64,000 bases of DNA from an uncultured Desulfobacterales bacterium. GTDB lineage: Bacteria > Desulfobacterota > Desulfobaccia > Desulfobaccales > Desulfobaccaceae. The stretch is taken from the NCBI GenBank assembly GCA_964428565.1, contig CAYRYV010000013.1:1-64000 (forward strand). The letters are read 5' to 3'. The position numbers and the translations under genes are program-made. The notes under the pieces were generated by a model, which was not told the DNA's origin, ran no database searches, and saw only the letters and a program-made list of their open reading frames with translations. How positions within the stretch are numbered: the stretch's first letter is position 1; every line of letters starts with the position of its first letter. Of the stretch, positions 1 to 6,897 are shown piece by piece.

Positions 1-1
1 T

Positions 2-48
2 CCGGGGGAGGGGGCAAGGGTCGTAAGACCCTTGGCCCCCTCCCCCGG
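2..48 (+). terminator. Near-perfect 19-bp-stem GC-rich hairpin followed by a T/C-rich tract; likely an intrinsic terminator of a gene upstream of the window
   Basis: CCGGGGGAGGGGGCAAGGG..CCCTTGGCCCCCTCCCCCGG inverted repeat, then tctctcttctcc. Confidence 0.35.
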
Positions 49-130
49 TCTCTCTTCTCCCGCGGCCTGGGCCCCCCGCTCCCGGGGAAGGTGAAAATCG
101 GCAAAAGTATCCGCCTGGGTAAATTATTTC

Positions 131-169
131 TTGACAGCGCCGCCGACTATATGTTATTGAGTCTCTATT
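131..169 (+). promoter_or_regulatory. fur promoter region: -35-like TTGACA (131-136) and 12-mer TGAGTCTCTATT (158-169) ending 4 nt before the fur ATG; the same 12-mer recurs at 649-660
   Basis: Exact 12/12 repeat in two adjacent promoters. No SD in front of fur, so the operator may overlap the TSS or a leaderless start. Confidence 0.4.
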
Positions 170-173
170 GCAT

Positions 174-611
174 ATGAAAACCGAAGCCGACGTCTTTAGA
201 GAATTTTTGGAAAGCAGAGGCATGCGGCCTACCCCCGAACGGCAGGCCATCCTCGCCGAAGTCTTTGCCGAACACGAGCATTTCGACGTGGAAGAGCTCA
301 TCATGCGTCTGCGCCGCAAGGGCCGGCGTCTCTCCCGGGCCTCGGTCTATCGCACCCTGTCTCTGTTGGTGGCCAGCGGCCTGGTCCAGGCGGTCTATTT
401 CGAAGATGGCCATATGCATTACGAACATGTCTACGGCCATGATCATCACTGCCACCTGCGGTGTCTGGGTTGCCGGGAGATCATCGAATTCACCAGCGAC
501 ATGGTGACCGAGGCTGAAAAACGCCTCGGACAGGACTACGATTTCCTCATCACCGGCCATCGCCTGGAGGTCTTCGGGTATTGCGCCGACTGTCGCCGGG
601 TATTGAAATAA
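174..611 (+). CDS. fur: Ferric uptake regulator family transcriptional repressor (Fur/Zur/PerR)
   Basis: N-terminal wHTH-like region and C-terminal HHCHLRCLGC...GYCADC metal sites. Alignment to E. coli Fur places the start at MKTEADV (ATG 174); the track's 168 start is TTG. Confidence 0.85.
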   Translation: MKTEADVFREFLESRGMRPTPERQAILAEVFAEHEHFDVEELIMRLRRKGRRLSRASVYRTLSLLVASGLVQAVYFEDGHMHYEHVYGHDHHCHLRCLGCREIIEFTSDMVTEAEKRLGQDYDFLITGHRLEVFGYCADCRRVLK

Positions 612-648
612 GCGGCAGCGGAAATTTTTTTTATCCATTACTTGCGAC

Positions 649-660
649 TGAGTCTCTATT
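649..660 (+). promoter_or_regulatory. Second copy of the TGAGTCTCTATT motif, upstream of the Fur-CTD paralogue
   Basis: Identical 12-mer to 158-169. Confidence 0.4.
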
Positions 661-683
661 TTAACAGCATCAGGAGAAATACC

Positions 684-1037
684 ATGGCCCGAAATTTCCC
701 GTTCCCGGCCCGCTTTCTGGAACTCCTGCAGCTCCTGCGGCCGACTCCCCCGGGGCTGGCCCGCACCGGCGCCACTCACCCAGGGGAACTCGCCGCCCCG
801 CCCCGGCCGCGGGGTGAGGCCACCTCTGACTTCCTCCCCGCCGCTGCCCTGCCCCCGGCCGGCGATGAACCCTGGGACCGGCTGCAGTGCCTGGGGTGCG
901 GCCGGATCATCGCCCTGCGGCAGGAGCGCTTGCCCCGGGACGTCCGCGCCCTGGCCCGATCCCACGACTTTCAGGACCTCGGGCATCGTCGGCTGTGGTT
1001 CGGCTTCTGCCCCCGCTGTCAGGGAAAACGGCAGTGA
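684..1037 (+). CDS. Fur-like C-terminal-domain-only protein: Pro/Ala-rich N-terminus with no DNA-binding domain, and a Fur dimerisation/metal-binding domain with CLGC...CPRC
   Basis: CLGCGRIIAL...DFQDLGHRRLWFGFCPRC aligns with Fur CLGCREIIEF...DFLITGHRLEVFGYCADC. AGGAGA SD 7 nt upstream of ATG 684. Confidence 0.6.
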   Translation: MARNFPFPARFLELLQLLRPTPPGLARTGATHPGELAAPPRPRGEATSDFLPAAALPPAGDEPWDRLQCLGCGRIIALRQERLPRDVRALARSHDFQDLGHRRLWFGFCPRCQGKRQ

Positions 1038-1113
1038 TCCGGGAGGATATTTTTTTTCGCAGATATAAGAGACTGAATCTCATTTTCTAAAACTTCTTAA
1101 GGAGGAATGTCCT

Positions 1114-1524
1114 GTGCCTGGTTTCCCCGTATGTCTTACCGACCACCGCACCCCGTCCCTCACCGGCGCCGCCGGCCCCCCGGCTTCGGTCGCCCCTCAC
1201 CCCGGCCTCGACCCGGAAGGCCCCGAAAACGGTGCGCTTGCCCCCGCGTTGTCCCGGGAACCCGCCATCCCTCTGGGATTGCTCGCCCCGGGCGAGAAGG
1301 CCGTGGTGGTGGATATCCGCGGCGGCAGACGGCCCCACGGCCCCGGTTGCTGTGGCCACGGCTCCCTCTCCCGCCTGGAGGATTTGGGACTCCGCCTGGG
1401 AAAGACCCTCGAGGTCCTCAACAACCGCGGCGCCTGCCCCCTGCTGATCAAAGTGGACGAATCGCGGCTCGCCCTCGGCCGGGGAGTAGCCATGAAAATA
1501 CTGGTGCGGAGGGTGCAGTCATGA
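1114..1524 (+). CDS. feoA: FeoA family protein, first copy, with a long Pro-rich N-terminal extension; exact start uncertain
   Basis: C-terminal ~75 aa (LAPGEKAVVVDIRGG...LGRGVAMKILV) is a FeoA/SH3-like domain. GTG 1114 lies 8 nt after AAGGAGG; alternative TTG at 1249. Confidence 0.55.
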   Translation: MPGFPVCLTDHRTPSLTGAAGPPASVAPHPGLDPEGPENGALAPALSREPAIPLGLLAPGEKAVVVDIRGGRRPHGPGCCGHGSLSRLEDLGLRLGKTLEVLNNRGACPLLIKVDESRLALGRGVAMKILVRRVQS

Positions 1525-1763
1525 ATCTGACGCAGGTGAATCTGGCCCAGTTGCCCATCGGCAAAGCCGGACGGATCGTCCGCCTGGAGGCCCAGGGGCC
1601 CCGCAAAAGACGCCTGATGGACATGGGGGTGATCGTCGGCCAGCAGGTTCAGGTGGAAAAAGTCGCGCCCCTGGGCGACCCCCTGGAGGTCATCATCAAG
1701 GATTATCGGCTCTCGCTGCGGAAAATCGAAGCCGAAAGCGTCATGGTGGAGGTGTTGCCATGA
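1521..1763 (+). CDS. feoA: FeoA family protein, second copy
   Basis: MNLTQVNLAQLPIGKAGRIVRL...IIKDYRLSLRKIEAESV. ATGA overlap with the upstream feoA and with feoB. Confidence 0.8.
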   Translation: MNLTQVNLAQLPIGKAGRIVRLEAQGPRKRRLMDMGVIVGQQVQVEKVAPLGDPLEVIIKDYRLSLRKIEAESVMVEVLP

Positions 1764-3952
1764 AGCCCGGGAGCGACACCCGTCGTCAGGCCATCACCGT
1801 GGCGGTGGCCGGCAACCCCAACTCCGGCAAGTCCACCCTGATCAATGCCGTGGCCGGCACCCGGCTGCAGGTGGGTAACTGGCCCGGCGTCACGGTGGAA
1901 AAGAAGGAAGCCCACCTCGTCCACGAGGGGCAGGACCTCCGCCTGGTGGACCTCCCCGGCACCTACAGCCTCAGCCCCTATTCCCAGGAGGAGATCGTCG
2001 CCCGGGATTACCTGGTGCAGGACCGGCCCGACGTCCTCATCGACGTCGTGGATGCCACCAACCTGGAGCGCAATCTCTATCTCACCATGCAGCTCTTGGA
2101 GTTGCAGCGGCCGGTGGTGGTGGCCCTGAACTTCTTCGACGAGGTCCGGAAAAAGGGCCTGGACATCAATATCCCGGCCCTGGAGGAGGCCCTGGGGGTG
2201 CGGGTGGTGCCCACCGTGGCCTCCCGGGGCGAAGGTTTGCAGGAGTTGCTGACCGCCGCCGTCGAGGCCGGGCAAAACGGCGGCCGCCGCCCCCCCCGGC
2301 AGTTGACCTACGGCGAGGACCTGGAACGGGCCGCCCAAAGCCTGGAGGACCGCCTGCAAAAGCGTTATCCCGGCCTGGCAGATCGGTATCCCCTGCGGTG
2401 GCTGGCCTACAAGCTCATGGAAGGCGACCCGCTGGCCCTCCAGGAGGCCAACCTGGATGCCGAGGCCGCCGCCTGGGTTGACTCGTCGGCGGCGGTCAGG
2501 CACCTGAAGAGCGGTCACGACGCGGACCTGGAAGGGTTGTTGGCCGAGGCCCGGCACGGCCTGGCGGCCGGTCTCACCCGGGAGGTGATGAAAAGACCCG
2601 GATGGACCAAGGTGGAACTCACTGAGCGCCTCGACCGCATCGTCCTCAATCGGGTCCTGGGCATCCCCATCTTCCTGGTGGCCATGTGGCTCATGTTCAA
2701 ACTCACCTTTGATCTGGGCAATCCCTTTGTCGACTGGGTGGACGGCGTCTTCAGCGGCCCCCTGACCCGCTGGACCAAAGACCTGCTCACCTTTGTCGCC
2801 GCCCCCGAGTGGTTTGTCTCCCTGGCCACCGAAGGCGTTATCGCCGGCGTCGGCACGGTCCTGACCTTCGTGCCCCTCATCTTCGCCATGATGTTCTTCA
2901 TCACCCTCCTGGAGGGCAGCGGCTACATGGCCCGGGCCGCCTTCGTCATGGATCGGGCCATGCATCTGCTGGGCCTGCACGGCAAGTCCTTCATCCCCAT
3001 GATCCTGGGTTTCGGCTGCAACGTGCCGGCCATCTATGCCACCCGCGCCCTGGACAATCCCCGGGACAAGGTGCTCACCGCCCTGCTGATCCCCCTCATG
3101 TCCTGCGGCGCCAAACTGCCGGTCTATGCCCTGTTCACCGCTCTCTTCTTTGCCGACCGCGCCGGCACCGTCATCTGGTCCTTGTACGTGCTGGGCATCG
3201 TCCTGGCCATGGTCATGGGGATCATCTTCAAGAAAACCCTGTTCCGGGGCGAGACCCCCCTGTTTGTCATGGAGTTGCCCCCTTACCGCTTTCCCACTCT
3301 GAAAAGCCTGCTGATCCACACCTGGGAGAAGGGCAAGCACTTCATCATCAAGGCGGGCACCTATATCCTGGCCGTCTCCGTACTCATGTGGTTCCTTCTC
3401 CATCTCCCCTGGGGGGTGGTGGACAAGCAGGATTCGGTGTTGGGCCGCATCGGCCAGGGGCTGGCCCCCGTCTTTCAACCCCTGGGATTCGGCCAGTGGC
3501 AGGCGGCCTCCTCCCTGGTGACCGGCTTTGTCGCCAAGGAGATCGTGGTGGCCACCATGGGGCAGATCTACGGCAAAGAGGCAGAATCGGAAGAGACGCC
3601 CTCCTTCGGCGAAGACCTCAAAGATATCGCCGTTTCCTTCGGCCAGGCCGTCATGACTGCCGGCCGCAATGTGGTCTCCACTTTCGGGGTCGCCACCCTG
3701 GCCGTCGAAGACGACGACAAGACCAAAGACTGGCGGGACGCCCTGCGGGAGCAATTCAGCCCCCTCAGCGCCCTGGCCTTCCTGGCCTTCACCCTGCTGT
3801 ACATGCCCTGTATGGTGACCGCCGTGGCCTATAAGCAGGAATTCGGCACCTGGAAATGGTTCGGGCTGGCCACCGGCTACGGCCTGCTCCTCGCCTGGCT
3901 GGTGGCCCTGATCATCTACCAGGGCGGCGCCCTCTTGGGATTAGGAGGTTAA
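1760..3952 (+). CDS. feoB: Ferrous iron transport protein B
   Basis: N-terminal G-domain GNPNSGKSTL, C-terminal polytopic membrane domain, 730 aa, translationally coupled to feoA. Confidence 0.95.
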   Translation: MKPGSDTRRQAITVAVAGNPNSGKSTLINAVAGTRLQVGNWPGVTVEKKEAHLVHEGQDLRLVDLPGTYSLSPYSQEEIVARDYLVQDRPDVLIDVVDATNLERNLYLTMQLLELQRPVVVALNFFDEVRKKGLDINIPALEEALGVRVVPTVASRGEGLQELLTAAVEAGQNGGRRPPRQLTYGEDLERAAQSLEDRLQKRYPGLADRYPLRWLAYKLMEGDPLALQEANLDAEAAAWVDSSAAVRHLKSGHDADLEGLLAEARHGLAAGLTREVMKRPGWTKVELTERLDRIVLNRVLGIPIFLVAMWLMFKLTFDLGNPFVDWVDGVFSGPLTRWTKDLLTFVAAPEWFVSLATEGVIAGVGTVLTFVPLIFAMMFFITLLEGSGYMARAAFVMDRAMHLLGLHGKSFIPMILGFGCNVPAIYATRALDNPRDKVLTALLIPLMSCGAKLPVYALFTALFFADRAGTVIWSLYVLGIVLAMVMGIIFKKTLFRGETPLFVMELPPYRFPTLKSLLIHTWEKGKHFIIKAGTYILAVSVLMWFLLHLPWGVVDKQDSVLGRIGQGLAPVFQPLGFGQWQAASSLVTGFVAKEIVVATMGQIYGKEAESEETPSFGEDLKDIAVSFGQAVMTAGRNVVSTFGVATLAVEDDDKTKDWRDALREQFSPLSALAFLAFTLLYMPCMVTAVAYKQEFGTWKWFGLATGYGLLLAWLVALIIYQGGALLGLGG

Positions 3953-3958
3953 CCCATC

Positions 3959-4099
3959 ATGATCGATACCTTGTTGGCCGGCGCCATCATCATCGGCGCC
4001 CTCTATCTGCTCTACCGCTCCCTCTGGAAAAAGCGGGGCTATTGCCCGGGATGCGCTTCCCCAACCTGCCCGGTAAAACGGGAAACGACAAACACCTGA
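3959..4099 (+). CDS. FeoB-associated Cys-rich small membrane protein (46 aa); not in the ORF track
   Basis: MIDTLLAGAIIIGALYLLYRSLWKKRGYCPGCASPTCPVKRETTNT: one TM helix plus a CxGCxxxxC tail; AGGAGG 10 nt upstream; directly after feoB. Confidence 0.7.
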   Translation: MIDTLLAGAIIIGALYLLYRSLWKKRGYCPGCASPTCPVKRETTNT

Positions 4100-4295
4100 T
4101 TCAGCCTGGACGAATTAGGCGCCTGCGACAAGGAGGATAAAAAGGAGGATAAATCGGAAAACCAGGTGGATGCAGTAAGGTTTTGGGATCCGGTGCCTGC
4201 AGGTGCATCCTGCCCATCCCTGAATATGGCTGGAGAGCCGGCAGCCGTGCCGTTCATCAGACTCAGGCAGCGACAAAACACAAGGAGGAAACGTC

Positions 4296-5042
4296 ATGAA
4301 AAGGTTGTTAATGGTGACCATCGCTGGTGTTTTCCTGATTATGACTTTCAGCCTGGCGGGAGCGGCTCAGGTTATAGTGGACGCCCCGAGTACGATAACT
4401 GTGGATGGCGTCCCCTACACCCTCGTGAGCCCGGCACCCGACTACAGCGGCCTCATGTGGGAGGAGATTCCCGTCGGGAAAGCCTGTCTGTGCAAGATGT
4501 CGGCCTTCCGGGCCCTGCAGGCGTTGGGAACCTTCCTCTCCCTCAGCGAATTCTCCAGCGCCCAGCTAAGTATCGTCACCGGCTGGAACACCCATGGTCC
4601 CGAAGAACTGTTCGTGGATAGCCTGACCTGGGTGAAGGGGACAAATTTCGCCTACGCTGATCCCATAACCTCAGGCTCTCTGTTGACCCTGGCGGACGCC
4701 TGGTACGAATTCACATATTCGGGGGTCATCTACAGGGTTGCCCATGATTCTTTCAATTACCGCTTTGCGCACGTTGAGACTCATGCCGGCTATCACCCGG
4801 ATTGGGATTTCTTCGACTACCGGCTCTTTATTCAAACCACCGGCGGCTCGACACCTGAAAAGGATTATTTCAGCAGTGTCATCAGACCGCAGATTGTCGC
4901 CAATTTCAGGGGCGAAACTTGGTTCGAGGTGAACGCGGTGCCGATTCCCGGTGCGGTCTGGCTGCTTGGTACGGGTATCATGGGGTTGGCTGCCAGGCGC
5001 TGGAGGATGGCCCGCCGCGATCAAAACGGTAGCTCGACCTGA
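4296..5042 (+). CDS. Secreted protein with a C-terminal PEP-CTERM-type sorting signal (exosortase substrate), in a lower-GC islet
   Basis: N-terminal signal peptide; C-terminus VPIPGAVWLLGTGIMGLAARRWRMARR (VPxP + TM + Arg cluster); good SD AAGGAGG. Confidence 0.7.
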   Translation: MKRLLMVTIAGVFLIMTFSLAGAAQVIVDAPSTITVDGVPYTLVSPAPDYSGLMWEEIPVGKACLCKMSAFRALQALGTFLSLSEFSSAQLSIVTGWNTHGPEELFVDSLTWVKGTNFAYADPITSGSLLTLADAWYEFTYSGVIYRVAHDSFNYRFAHVETHAGYHPDWDFFDYRLFIQTTGGSTPEKDYFSSVIRPQIVANFRGETWFEVNAVPIPGAVWLLGTGIMGLAARRWRMARRDQNGSST

Positions 5043-5599: not shown

Positions 5600-5673
5600 A
5601 ACAGCTCTCCGGAGCCGGCGTTGTCTCGGCATGGAGCCGCCGGCTCCGGGAGCATGTGGTAAAAGGTGATGCA

Positions 5674-6897
5674 ATGCCGGTTTTTACCAGAATAAGACGT
5701 CCCCTGGCGACCCTGGAGCAGTTTCTTTGTCCTTTGATCGGCACCTGTCTGACCCTCAGGGAACTCCAGAAAATCGCCCGGCGGTTTAAATATGAGGGGG
5801 AGTCCACTCCCTATAACCTCCATACCTGGTTGATCAGGGCTTGTAAAAACTCGCCCCCCGTCGCCAAGTACGTGCAGAAATTCCTCAGCGACAAATATCG
5901 CCCCATCATGCGGCGGCTGGACGAATTCGAGGGCGAGGCCTTGCTCCCCGCCTGGGAAGAGGCGGTGCGGGAAGGTCAGGTGGCCGGAGCCTTCTGGGCT
6001 CTGCTCACCCGCCTGGATGTCCCCGACGCCGTCATTGAGCAGGTCTTCGGGGAGGTCCACATGATGTCCCACCTGCAGGCGTCCGAGGTCCGCACCGAAC
6101 TCCAGGCCTTTGACGCCCTGCGCCGGGACCGCGACCAGTTGGCCCGGCGCCTTCACAAGACCAGGAGCAATCTGGAAGACCAGCGGTCCCGGAGAGAGGA
6201 ACTGCGTCGCCGCCTGGTCCACCGGGAAACCGAAGTCCGGCAGCTCCGGCGTCAACTAACCCAGACAGACAAGGTCCTGCAAAGCTATCAAGATGCCGGG
6301 GTCCTCACCCGCCTGGAGACGGAAAACCAGACGCTGCACCGGGAAAATAAGGACCTGCGGGCCCGCCTGTCCCAGGAACGCCTCCTCCGGGAGAAGCTCG
6401 ACCAGCGCCTGGCGCGCCTGCAGGAGAGGGCCCAGCAGCGGCGCTCCCGCATTCCGACGCCCGCTCCCCGGGGGTGTCCGCACCTCTGTCCCCGGACTCT
6501 GGCCGCGGCTTGTCCCCTGGGGCCTGAAGCTCAGTGCCCCGGCTTGTGTAATAAAAACATCCTGTTAGTGGGGGGATTGGAGAAACTGGTGCCCTTTTAC
6601 CGGGGTGTGGTGGAAGGCGACTTCGGCGCCTGCTTTCTCCGCCATGACGGCGACTTCCATCAGGGACAATCCTGTCTCGCCGGGCTGGTCAAAAAGGCCC
6701 ACGCCGTCATCTGCCCCATCGGCGTCAATAGTCACGACGCCTGCCTGTGCGCCAAGAAGCTTTGCAAGAGGCTGAACAAACCCTGTGTCATGTTGCCCAC
6801 GGCCGGTCTGGGAGTCCTGAAGCAGACCCTCCAACAACTGGCGGACAAAGAAGCCGCCCGGGGGGATACTGGGCCGGATCTGCCCCCGATCCAATGA
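5674..6897 (+). CDS. Coiled-coil protein with a C-terminal DUF2325-like Cys-containing domain
   Basis: Long Arg/Glu-rich coiled-coil in the middle; C-terminal ILLVGG...CPIGVNSHDA...CK pattern typical of DUF2325; ATG 5674 after AAAGGTGA. Confidence 0.5.
   Translation: MPVFTRIRRPLATLEQFLCPLIGTCLTLRELQKIARRFKYEGESTPYNLHTWLIRACKNSPPVAKYVQKFLSDKYRPIMRRLDEFEGEALLPAWEEAVREGQVAGAFWALLTRLDVPDAVIEQVFGEVHMMSHLQASEVRTELQAFDALRRDRDQLARRLHKTRSNLEDQRSRREELRRRLVHRETEVRQLRRQLTQTDKVLQSYQDAGVLTRLETENQTLHRENKDLRARLSQERLLREKLDQRLARLQERAQQRRSRIPTPAPRGCPHLCPRTLAAACPLGPEAQCPGLCNKNILLVGGLEKLVPFYRGVVEGDFGACFLRHDGDFHQGQSCLAGLVKKAHAVICPIGVNSHDACLCAKKLCKRLNKPCVMLPTAGLGVLKQTLQQLADKEAARGDTGPDLPPIQ

Follow-up and report, generated by a model that had tools for sequence, protein, structure and literature searches.

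We analyzed a 64,000-nucleotide (nt) stretch of DNA from an uncultured Desulfobacterales bacterium (contig CAYRYV010000013.1, positions 1 to 64,000 of the forward strand; referred to below as the window), in which a short open reading frame (ORF) lies between fur, encoding the ferric uptake regulator, and the ferrous iron uptake genes feoA-feoA-feoB (feoAAB). The product of this short ORF is a Fur paralogue that retains the C-terminal dimerization domain alone and has no DNA-binding domain. It belongs to a small family whose C-terminal domain is under purifying selection, and each of fur, the short ORF, and feoA is preceded by a Fur-box-like inverted repeat. We tentatively propose that the protein acts as an antagonist of Fur. 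The coordinates of all features are collected in Table 1.

A Fur dimerization domain without a winged helix

The initial annotation, made before any database search, had described the ORF as having a Pro/Ala-rich N terminus with no winged helix and a C-terminal end homologous to the Fur dimerization region, and both descriptions held up. In a BLASTP comparison, residues 60 to 113 aligned without gaps to residues 88 to 141 of the neighboring Fur, with 18 of 54 positions identical (33%) and an E value of 2e-9; the alignment takes in the elements CLGC, II, DF, GHR, FG[YF]C, and the second CxxC. Pro, Ala, Gly, and Arg make up 56% of residues 1 to 59. No FUR or helix-turn-helix model in Pfam matched the product at an E value of ≤1, the sole match being a weak one to DUF951, and the NCBIfam Fur models matched residues 60 to 116 with 15 to 18 bits, against cutoffs of 146 to 220. 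When a profile of the short ORF product and its two orthologues (see below) was compared with PDB sequences by hmmsearch, solely Fur-family chains were recovered (C. jejuni 4ets/6d57 and H. pylori 2xig), all in the dimerization domain. An hhalign comparison with 77 Fur sequences gave a probability of 98.7% and an E value of 1.6e-16, with confident columns at residues 60 to 117 only and a confidence of 0 ahead of residue 60.

Structure prediction gave the same division. A first AlphaFold run on the three sequences, with a mean predicted local distance difference test (pLDDT) score of 54, was replaced by a run in which Fur sequences were included in the alignment. The latter model scored 79 to 88 over residues 60 to 117; residues 1 to 55 scored below 50 in both models and are predicted to be disordered, with values of 32 to 46 over the linker (codons 21 to 55) and an N-terminal helix predicted at low confidence at residues 9 to 18. 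In a Foldseek search of the PDB, the best 50 matches were all Fur, PerR, Zur, or Mur structures, superimposed over 46 to 62 columns with a root mean square deviation of 1.7 to 4.1 Å; against Fur and PerR, the deviation was 1.7 to 2.5 Å over 50 to 56 columns. Since the alignment behind the model was biased toward Fur, the Foldseek result corroborates the sequence comparison and is no independent proof.

Compared with the Fur family (PF01475; C. jejuni 4ets/6d57, H. pylori 2xig, and B. subtilis PerR 2fe3), the short ORF product has in common the C-terminal beta-beta-alpha-beta domain with its short helix, the two CxxC pairs of the S1 Zn(Cys)4 site, and the GH, FG, and DF positions. It differs in having neither a winged helix nor the site 2 ligands, in keeping only two of the four ligands of the other site, and in scoring below the Pfam and NCBIfam thresholds.

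Metal ligands kept and lost

Ligand positions were assigned from ungapped alignment offsets (+24 for E. coli Fur and +33 for H. pylori Fur), with the sites defined as in previous reports (PMC12538065, PMC11353095). The four cysteines of the Cys4 (S1) site, C69, C72, C109, and C112, align to the Fur cysteines and are invariant in the three orthologues; they would form a Zn(Cys)4 clasp. S1 is reported to be required for Fur dimerization (PMC11353095); in E. coli Fur, the cysteine site is reported to drive dimerization (PMC12538065) and takes either Zn(II) or a [2Fe-2S] cluster (PMC11353095, PMC12538065).

All ligands of regulatory site 2 are lost: the equivalents of His88 and His90 are W64 and R66, that of the beta-4 Glu is A77, and the remaining two ligands, His33 and Glu81, belong to the DNA-binding domain, which is absent here. 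At the other site of the dimerization domain (E. coli site 1, H. pylori S3; His, Asp, Glu, His), two of the four ligands, D65 and H101, are retained, while the His and Glu positions are occupied by P63 and P84, with E81 and D86 close by. The original label of metal-binding domain is thus apt for the Cys4 site, but most of the regulatory His and Glu ligands are gone, and the complete loss of site 2 together with the half-loss of the other His/Asp/Glu site weakens the idea, raised in the initial annotation, that the protein is a metal buffer.

The short ORF is a selected gene of very narrow distribution

A word-indexed search of 5.8 billion proteins returned three members of the family including the query. 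The two orthologues, P0002 and P0003, are 62% and 54% identical to the query, respectively, and each has a length of exactly 117 amino acids (aa). The gene order fur-ORF-feoA-feoA-feoB is common to all three lineages that carry the short ORF, and the position directly ahead of feoAAB, pointed out in the initial annotation, is therefore conserved in every known carrier.

Substitution patterns differ sharply along the reading frame. Over codons 56 to 117, the ratio of nonsynonymous to synonymous substitution rates (dN/dS) was 0.23 to 0.29 in the three pairwise comparisons (Fisher P values of 1.5e-4 to 1.2e-3); over codons 21 to 55 it was 0.7 to 1.6, with no indels among the three orthologues; and fur gave 0.11 to 0.19. 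The nonsynonymous rate was higher in the linker than in the domain, with P values of 2e-8 to 2.5e-5. Near the N terminus, 8 of the 11 residues encoded by codons 10 to 20 (RFLELLQLLRP) are invariant, and in this segment the window and the related locus L001 differ by four synonymous and no nonsynonymous substitutions. The length, start codon, and ribosome-binding site (RBS) of the ORF are conserved at a synonymous divergence (dS) of 0.46 to 0.75. Because the contrast between linker and domain arises within one reading frame, the substitution pattern identifies the short ORF as a real gene and not a decaying pseudogene.

The family is extremely rare, being confined to three closely related uncultured lineages. 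A pattern scan of 185,579 species-representative genomes revealed no further relative of the short ORF, and a metagenome scan recovered the L001 contig again and nothing else. When 1.84 billion representative proteins were searched exhaustively with HMMER, the family formed a single cluster, and the next matches were ordinary Furs at E values of at least 9e-7. The other matches at E values of ≤1e-3 were weak and restricted to the C-terminal Fur-like region, with the exception of P0022 (464 aa); those examined were ordinary Furs, Fur fragments, or Fur::FeoA fusions, with the histidine motif still present.

Stand-alone Fur C-terminal ORFs also occur sporadically elsewhere, as singletons that keep the histidines, and truncated Furs seem to arise repeatedly. 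One of these, P0019, is a 69-aa ORF (L057, 1134 to 1343) with the HHEH motif kept, which sits mid-contig, flanked by TMP-TENI and SLT genes that leave no space for a DNA-binding domain. In another protein, P0025 (128 aa), an unrelated N terminus is joined to the Fur C-terminal domain.

Probable origin by partial tandem duplication

Among species-representative genomes, the closest relatives of the window's Fur were found in L007 (74% identity) and L009 (63%), in both of which fur is followed directly by feoA and there is no short ORF. Alignment of the 3' end of fur and the spacer after it with the 3' end of the short ORF and the spacer after it shows a repeated block that consists of a Fur-type C terminus, a stop codon, 10 to 25 nt, a run of 7 to 9 T residues, about 12 nt, a 15-bp inverted repeat, about 20 nt, GGAG, and a start codon. 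The block is present in two copies in the window, L001, and L004 and in one copy in L007 and L009. The spacers on the two sides of the short ORF are significantly similar to each other (z score of 4.4 for the window, 11.5 for L001), while the only part that spacer 1 shares with the region 5' of fur is a 12-mer discussed below. The simplest history that the sequences suggest is a tandem duplication reaching from inside fur to near the feoA start, which would have left a fur copy that is truncated at its 5' end behind a second feoA control region. Very probably, then, the ORF is a recently formed Fur paralogue, restricted to its lineage, that arose by partial tandem duplication of a segment running from within fur (from codon 88 or earlier) to the end of the fur-feoA spacer and is now expressed from the duplicated feoA-type operator and RBS region.

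A Fur-derived part of the ORF is claimed only from about codon 60, which corresponds to Fur codon 88. At an ungapped offset of +28, residues 1 to 59 share a small EL..LR island with Fur, and an HMMER alignment to P0004 reaches back to residue 16; MAFFT instead paired ARFL with REFL, opening a gap of 28 residues. In shuffle tests, the N terminus of the ORF did not resemble the Fur N terminus (z ≤ 3) or the N-terminal extension of the first FeoA (z ≤ 2) to a significant degree. A frameshifted remnant of the DNA-binding domain was also considered and rejected, as a tblastn search of Fur against all frames of positions 612 to 1100 gave the in-frame C-terminal match only.

The T run of the block is conserved in all eight spacers that were aligned. 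A scan for intrinsic terminators found none at the T runs, and the hairpins there fold no better than shuffled sequence; a weak terminator and an UP-like element are candidate roles.

Fur-box-like repeats precede fur, the short ORF, and feoA

The initial annotation had noted that the identical 12-mer TGAGTCTCTATT precedes fur and the short ORF, at positions 158 to 169 and 649 to 660, and had taken it to indicate a common operator and autoregulation. The exact repeat was confirmed and has no other occurrence in the window, even when as many as 2 mismatches are allowed. Chance alone could well produce one exact 12-mer repeat in 64 kb; what marks the site as real is that its two copies are found no more than 35 nt 5' of the start codons of two adjacent paralogous genes and that both are conserved in orthologous loci while their flanks diverge. 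Within a 7-1-7 inverted repeat, the 12-mer takes up the spacer base and the right half-site, together with three bases of flank, and a third related site, missed previously, precedes feoA.

The 7-1-7 repeat was found ahead of fur, the short ORF, and feoA in all genomes examined, and also ahead of fur and feoA in the relatives without the ORF, and the three boxes of the window are conserved across L001, L004, L007, and L009. The sites orthologous to box 1 are TGTTATTGAGTCTCT (L001), TGATATTGAGAATCA (L007), and TGATATTGAGAATCT (L009), and those orthologous to box 2 are TGAGACTGAGTCTCT (L001) and TGAAATTGAGTCTCA (L004). At box 3, the L007 and L009 sites are perfect palindromes, TGAGACTAAGTCTCA (TGAGACT-A-AGTCTCA) and TGAGATTAAATCTCA (TGAGATT-A-AATCTCA), respectively. 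Together, the boxes give the consensus TGAGAYT-n-ARTCTCA, which has a Fur-box-like architecture. The classical Fur box reads TGATAAT-n-ATTATCA in its 7-1-7 form. It, too, is a 15-bp 7-1-7 inverted repeat over fur and feo promoters, and positions T1, G2, A3, A5, and T7 and their mirror positions are common to the two; the boxes described here depart from it by symmetric changes at positions 4/12 and 6/10.

The positions of the boxes fit fur autoregulation and Fur control of the short ORF and feoAAB, which their architecture would also suggest. Of the interpretation first given to the 12-mer, the conserved operator-like element stands, but enrichment elsewhere could not be shown, and the 64-kb window contains no convincing additional site. 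Pattern and weight-matrix scans of the window found weak matches at 4336, 6979, 9322, 22627, 24224, and 53078, which are at chance level and not beside obvious iron genes; the weight-matrix scan is partly circular because the matrix included the window's own sites.

Within a genome, the fur and ORF sites also share the bases just after the box (...CTCTATT at 158 to 170 and 649 to 661 of the window; ...CTCTATCT at 2033 to 2045 and 2532 to 2544 of L001). Because the flanking bases match within each genome, the two copies co-vary between genomes, which could reflect gene conversion, shared constraint, or chance.

A consensus promoter scan yielded no passing candidate. Box 1 begins 15 nt after a putative -35-like TTGACA hexamer, so that, given a 17-nt spacer, the expected -10 element of fur would fall within the AT-rich left half of the box. 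No Shine-Dalgarno sequence precedes the fur ATG, and fur mRNA may be leaderless or nearly so, since the ATG lies 8 nt past an operator that overlaps the expected -10 element. The same layout (positions 152 to 176 of the window) is repeated in L001, L007, and L008.

TABLE 1 Features of the fur-feo locus in the window
Feature	Coordinates	Strand	Remarks
TTGACA, putative -35-like hexamer of the fur promoter	131-136	+	CTTGAC conserved in the window, L001, L007, L008, L009, and L010
Box 1, before fur: TGTTATT-G-AGTCTCT	152-166	+	Holds most of the 12-mer copy at 158-169; ends 8 nt ahead of the fur ATG
fur, full length, 145 aa	174-611	+	Pfam FUR, E 7e-27
T8 run, spacer 1	625-632	+	Paralogous to the run at 1050-1057
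Box 2, before the short ORF: TGCGACT-G-AGTCTCT	643-657	+	Holds most of the 12-mer copy at 649-660
RBS of the short ORF, AGGAGA	672-677	+	GGAGA equally far from the start codon in the window and in L001 and L004
Short Fur paralogue, 117 aa plus stop	684-1037	+	Orthologues P0002 and P0003; conserved synteny
Codons 10-20, conserved helix RFLELLQLLRP	711-743	+	
Codons 21-55, Pro/Ala/Gly-rich variable linker	744-848	+	Neutral evolution
Codons 56-117, Fur-type dimerization domain	849-1034	+	Cys4 site C69, C72, C109, C112
T8 run, spacer 2	1050-1057	+	Aligned with the run at 625-632
Box 3, before feoA: AGAGACT-G-AATCTCA (AGAGACTGAATCTCA)	1068-1082	+	Best match to the consensus; 1 mismatch to TGAGAYTNARTCTCA
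feoA-1, 136 aa	1114-1524	+	GTG start; GGAGG at 1101-1105; Pfam FeoA, E 6e-17
feoA-2, 80 aa	1521-1763	+	Pfam FeoA, E 7.5e-21
feoB, 730 aa	1760-3952	+	Pfam FeoB_N, E 1.4e-65; Gate; FeoB_C
Small Cys-rich FeoB-associated membrane protein, 46 aa	3959-4099	+	Pfam FeoB_associated, E 2.5e-4, below the gathering score

A model for antagonism of Fur

Taken together with the arrangement of the locus, the domain content of the short ORF product raises the possibility, which we favor tentatively, that it is a Fur-controlled poison subunit, or anti-repressor, that pairs with Fur and blocks its binding to the operator. The three promoters (fur, the short ORF, and feoAAB) carry the same Fur-box-like 7-1-7 operator, and from this common operator iron-dependent repression of the short ORF would follow: with iron plentiful, metal-loaded Fur would repress the ORF, and with iron scarce, the ORF would be released along with feoAAB. 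Its product, which has the Fur pairing surface and no DNA-binding domain, would then pair with Fur monomers. Such a heterodimer would be unable to clamp the palindromic operator because it would have one DNA-binding domain only and would be missing half of the metal switch. The outcome could be a sharpened or prolonged derepression of feo and of fur itself, that is, a positive-feedback or hysteresis element. In this scheme we infer Fur binding to the boxes, the expression pattern, the formation of the heterodimer, and its effect.

Known systems provide precedents. SinI of B. subtilis is a small protein homologous only to the oligomerization region of SinR, is encoded alongside it, and antagonizes it through a hetero-complex. 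It differs from the short ORF product in its unrelated fold (helical hooks) and in being controlled by Spo0A and not by the repressor that it antagonizes; SinI/SinR hetero-interactions have been discussed elsewhere (PMC3917956). TrlR (TraS) of Agrobacterium octopine-type Ti plasmids, which is without the TraR DNA-binding domain, forms inactive TrlR:TraR dimers (PMC3907764). TrlR and the short ORF product are alike in being duplicates of a dimeric transcription factor without its DNA-binding domain, and the mechanism shown for TrlR, inactive heterodimers with the parent factor, is the one that we propose here. However, TrlR is of the unrelated LuxR type and lost its C-terminal domain by a frameshift while keeping the ligand-binding domain, whereas the short ORF product misses the N-terminal domain and has lost the metal switch as well. 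In common with dominant-negative truncated paralogues of the TrlR/SinI type, the short ORF product is homologous to the oligomerization part of a cognate regulator, has no DNA-binding domain, and evolves under selection.

A protein anti-repressor of Fur itself is found in Bacilli, where it is called YlaN or FurA (bioRxiv 10.1101/2023.09.28.559918). YlaN/FurA (PDB model 9a4a) is small, binds Fur at iron limitation, and blocks operator binding, a role that the short ORF product would match; unlike the latter, it has no sequence relation to Fur, is restricted to Bacilli, and reorients Fur instead of replacing a subunit. Searches of the short ORF against Pfam and NCBIfam revealed no YlaN/FurA or FeoC membership, only Fur C-terminal fragments and the weak DUF951 match.

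A number of observations weigh against the antagonist model. The C-terminal domain of the ORF is only 33 to 41% identical to the cognate Fur domain, as compared with 63 to 86% among the Fur orthologues of the clade, and given this divergence the pairing surface may have shifted to self-pairing or to another partner. A simple poison-subunit model leaves the conserved N-terminal helix without a role. As the family is present in three closely related uncultured lineages only, the time over which selection has been observed is short. Finally, Fur binding to the boxes is suggested by their architecture and position alone. We regard as somewhat less likely than not the full scenario in which a partial fur copy became a starvation-made anti-Fur protein that consists of the dimerization domain only and titrates Fur into nonbinding heterodimers, providing feedback or memory for the iron uptake switch.

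Alternative explanations

The divergence from Fur would also suit a new partner, and one candidate is the transporter itself: the Cys4 domain and the N-terminal helix might act on FeoA or FeoB and not on Fur. Such a Feo accessory protein could, for example, couple cytoplasmic iron or Fe-S status to the activity or stability of the transporter, as has been proposed for gamma-proteobacterial FeoC. The constant position of the short ORF directly 5' of feoA-feoA-feoB, behind the same type of operator, is in keeping with this explanation, as are natural Fur::FeoA fusions, encoded by an ORF at 4437 to 5138 of L010 (233 aa) and found also in P0012 (229 aa) and P0030 (357 aa), which indicate that Fur-type and FeoA domains work together in some lineages. 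However, the fusions keep the full DNA-binding domain and an HHDH motif and are thus regulators to which a FeoA domain has been added and not subunits of the transporter. The short ORF, moreover, is no closer to the fused Fur of L010 (Fur2; 35.4 bits) than to ordinary Furs (36.6 to 47.8 bits), matches no FeoC or other Feo family in Pfam or NCBIfam, and is missing from the same feo operon in the relatives L007 and L009. On balance, we consider an accessory role in Feo transport unlikely. The fusions themselves carry one or two FeoA domains after a full-length Fur; that of L010 is flanked by an ordinary fur and by feoA-feoB, and the layout recalls the DtxR/MntR regulators with their C-terminal FeoA-like SH3 domain.

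A protein that pairs with itself and works independently of Fur, as a Zn or Fe-S metal buffer, a store, or an iron or redox sensor, could account for the invariance of all four cysteines, the retention of Asp65 and His101, and, if the boxes are Fur operators, co-regulation with iron uptake. Yet one Cys4 site per 117 residues makes a poor buffer, the N/O ligands for exchangeable metal are mostly replaced (P63, W64, R66, A77, and P84), and a sensor would be left with no output domain, all of which makes this function very unlikely. Alternatively, the ORF might have no function at all and be the as yet undecayed remnant of a partial fur duplication, with the 12-mer a by-product of the duplication and of promoter architecture. 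The extremely narrow distribution, the neutral evolution of half of the ORF, and the sporadic appearance of truncated Fur ORFs such as the 69-aa P0019 are what a relic would predict. A relic would not be expected, however, to show significant purifying selection on the C-terminal domain in three of three pairwise comparisons while the adjoining linker shows none, nor to preserve its length, start codon, and RBS at the synonymous divergence given above; furthermore, the boxes are conserved amid diverging flanks and are present in genomes without the duplication. We judge a functionless relic to be highly improbable.

Other features of the locus

The fur product has about 200 homologues at E values of ≤1e-10, and NCBIfam Fur models match it below their cutoffs. 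In FeoA-1, about 50 Pro/Ala-rich residues extend the N terminus, and the FeoA domain is interrupted by a Cys-rich insert, GPGCCGHG; the FeoA of L007 has a different Cys-rich insert (PCSQCKCTNPECC), and that of L009 has the N-terminal extension although the short ORF is absent there. The 46-aa ORF after feoB has a counterpart in the same position in L001 and L002. A 413-aa ORF at 5656 to 6897, starting with MVKGDAMPVFTRIRRPLATLEQFLCP, is similar to a 403-aa ORF about 1.5 kb 3' of fur in L009, and in L001 a 421-aa gene with a DUF2325 annotation occupies the corresponding position 3' of the feo operon; the 413-aa ORF may be a conserved neighbor of the iron locus.

At the very start of the window, positions 2 to 49 form a GC-rich, near-perfect hairpin (CCGGGGGAGGGGGCAAGGG ... 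CCCTTGGCCCCCTCCCCCGG) that may be the terminator of an upstream gene. An Rfam search yielded only subthreshold microRNA precursor look-alikes for this hairpin and nothing meaningful in positions 1 to 5000. A 273-aa ORF on the minus strand (165 to 986), antisense across fur and the short ORF, is probably an artifact of the 63% G+C content.

Significance

Fur is the main bacterial iron regulator, and its tuning beyond metal binding, by YlaN or by a [2Fe-2S] cluster at the cysteine site, is only now being worked out. Our searches of open-access text found no Fur-family protein without a DNA-binding domain that had been described as a regulator. If the proposed antagonism is true, the short ORF would encode a naturally occurring dominant-negative Fur-family protein, the first of its kind, and would represent a second class of Fur anti-repressor, evolved independently of YlaN, and the poison-subunit logic of TrlR and SinI would extend to Fur. 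Although the reach of such a mechanism would be limited to the three uncultured lineages that carry the gene, a selected Fur fragment would supply a natural minimal dimerization module for the study of the isolated cysteine site. The short ORF would also offer a clean, datable case of the birth of a regulator gene by partial tandem duplication, with the promoter and operator copied along.

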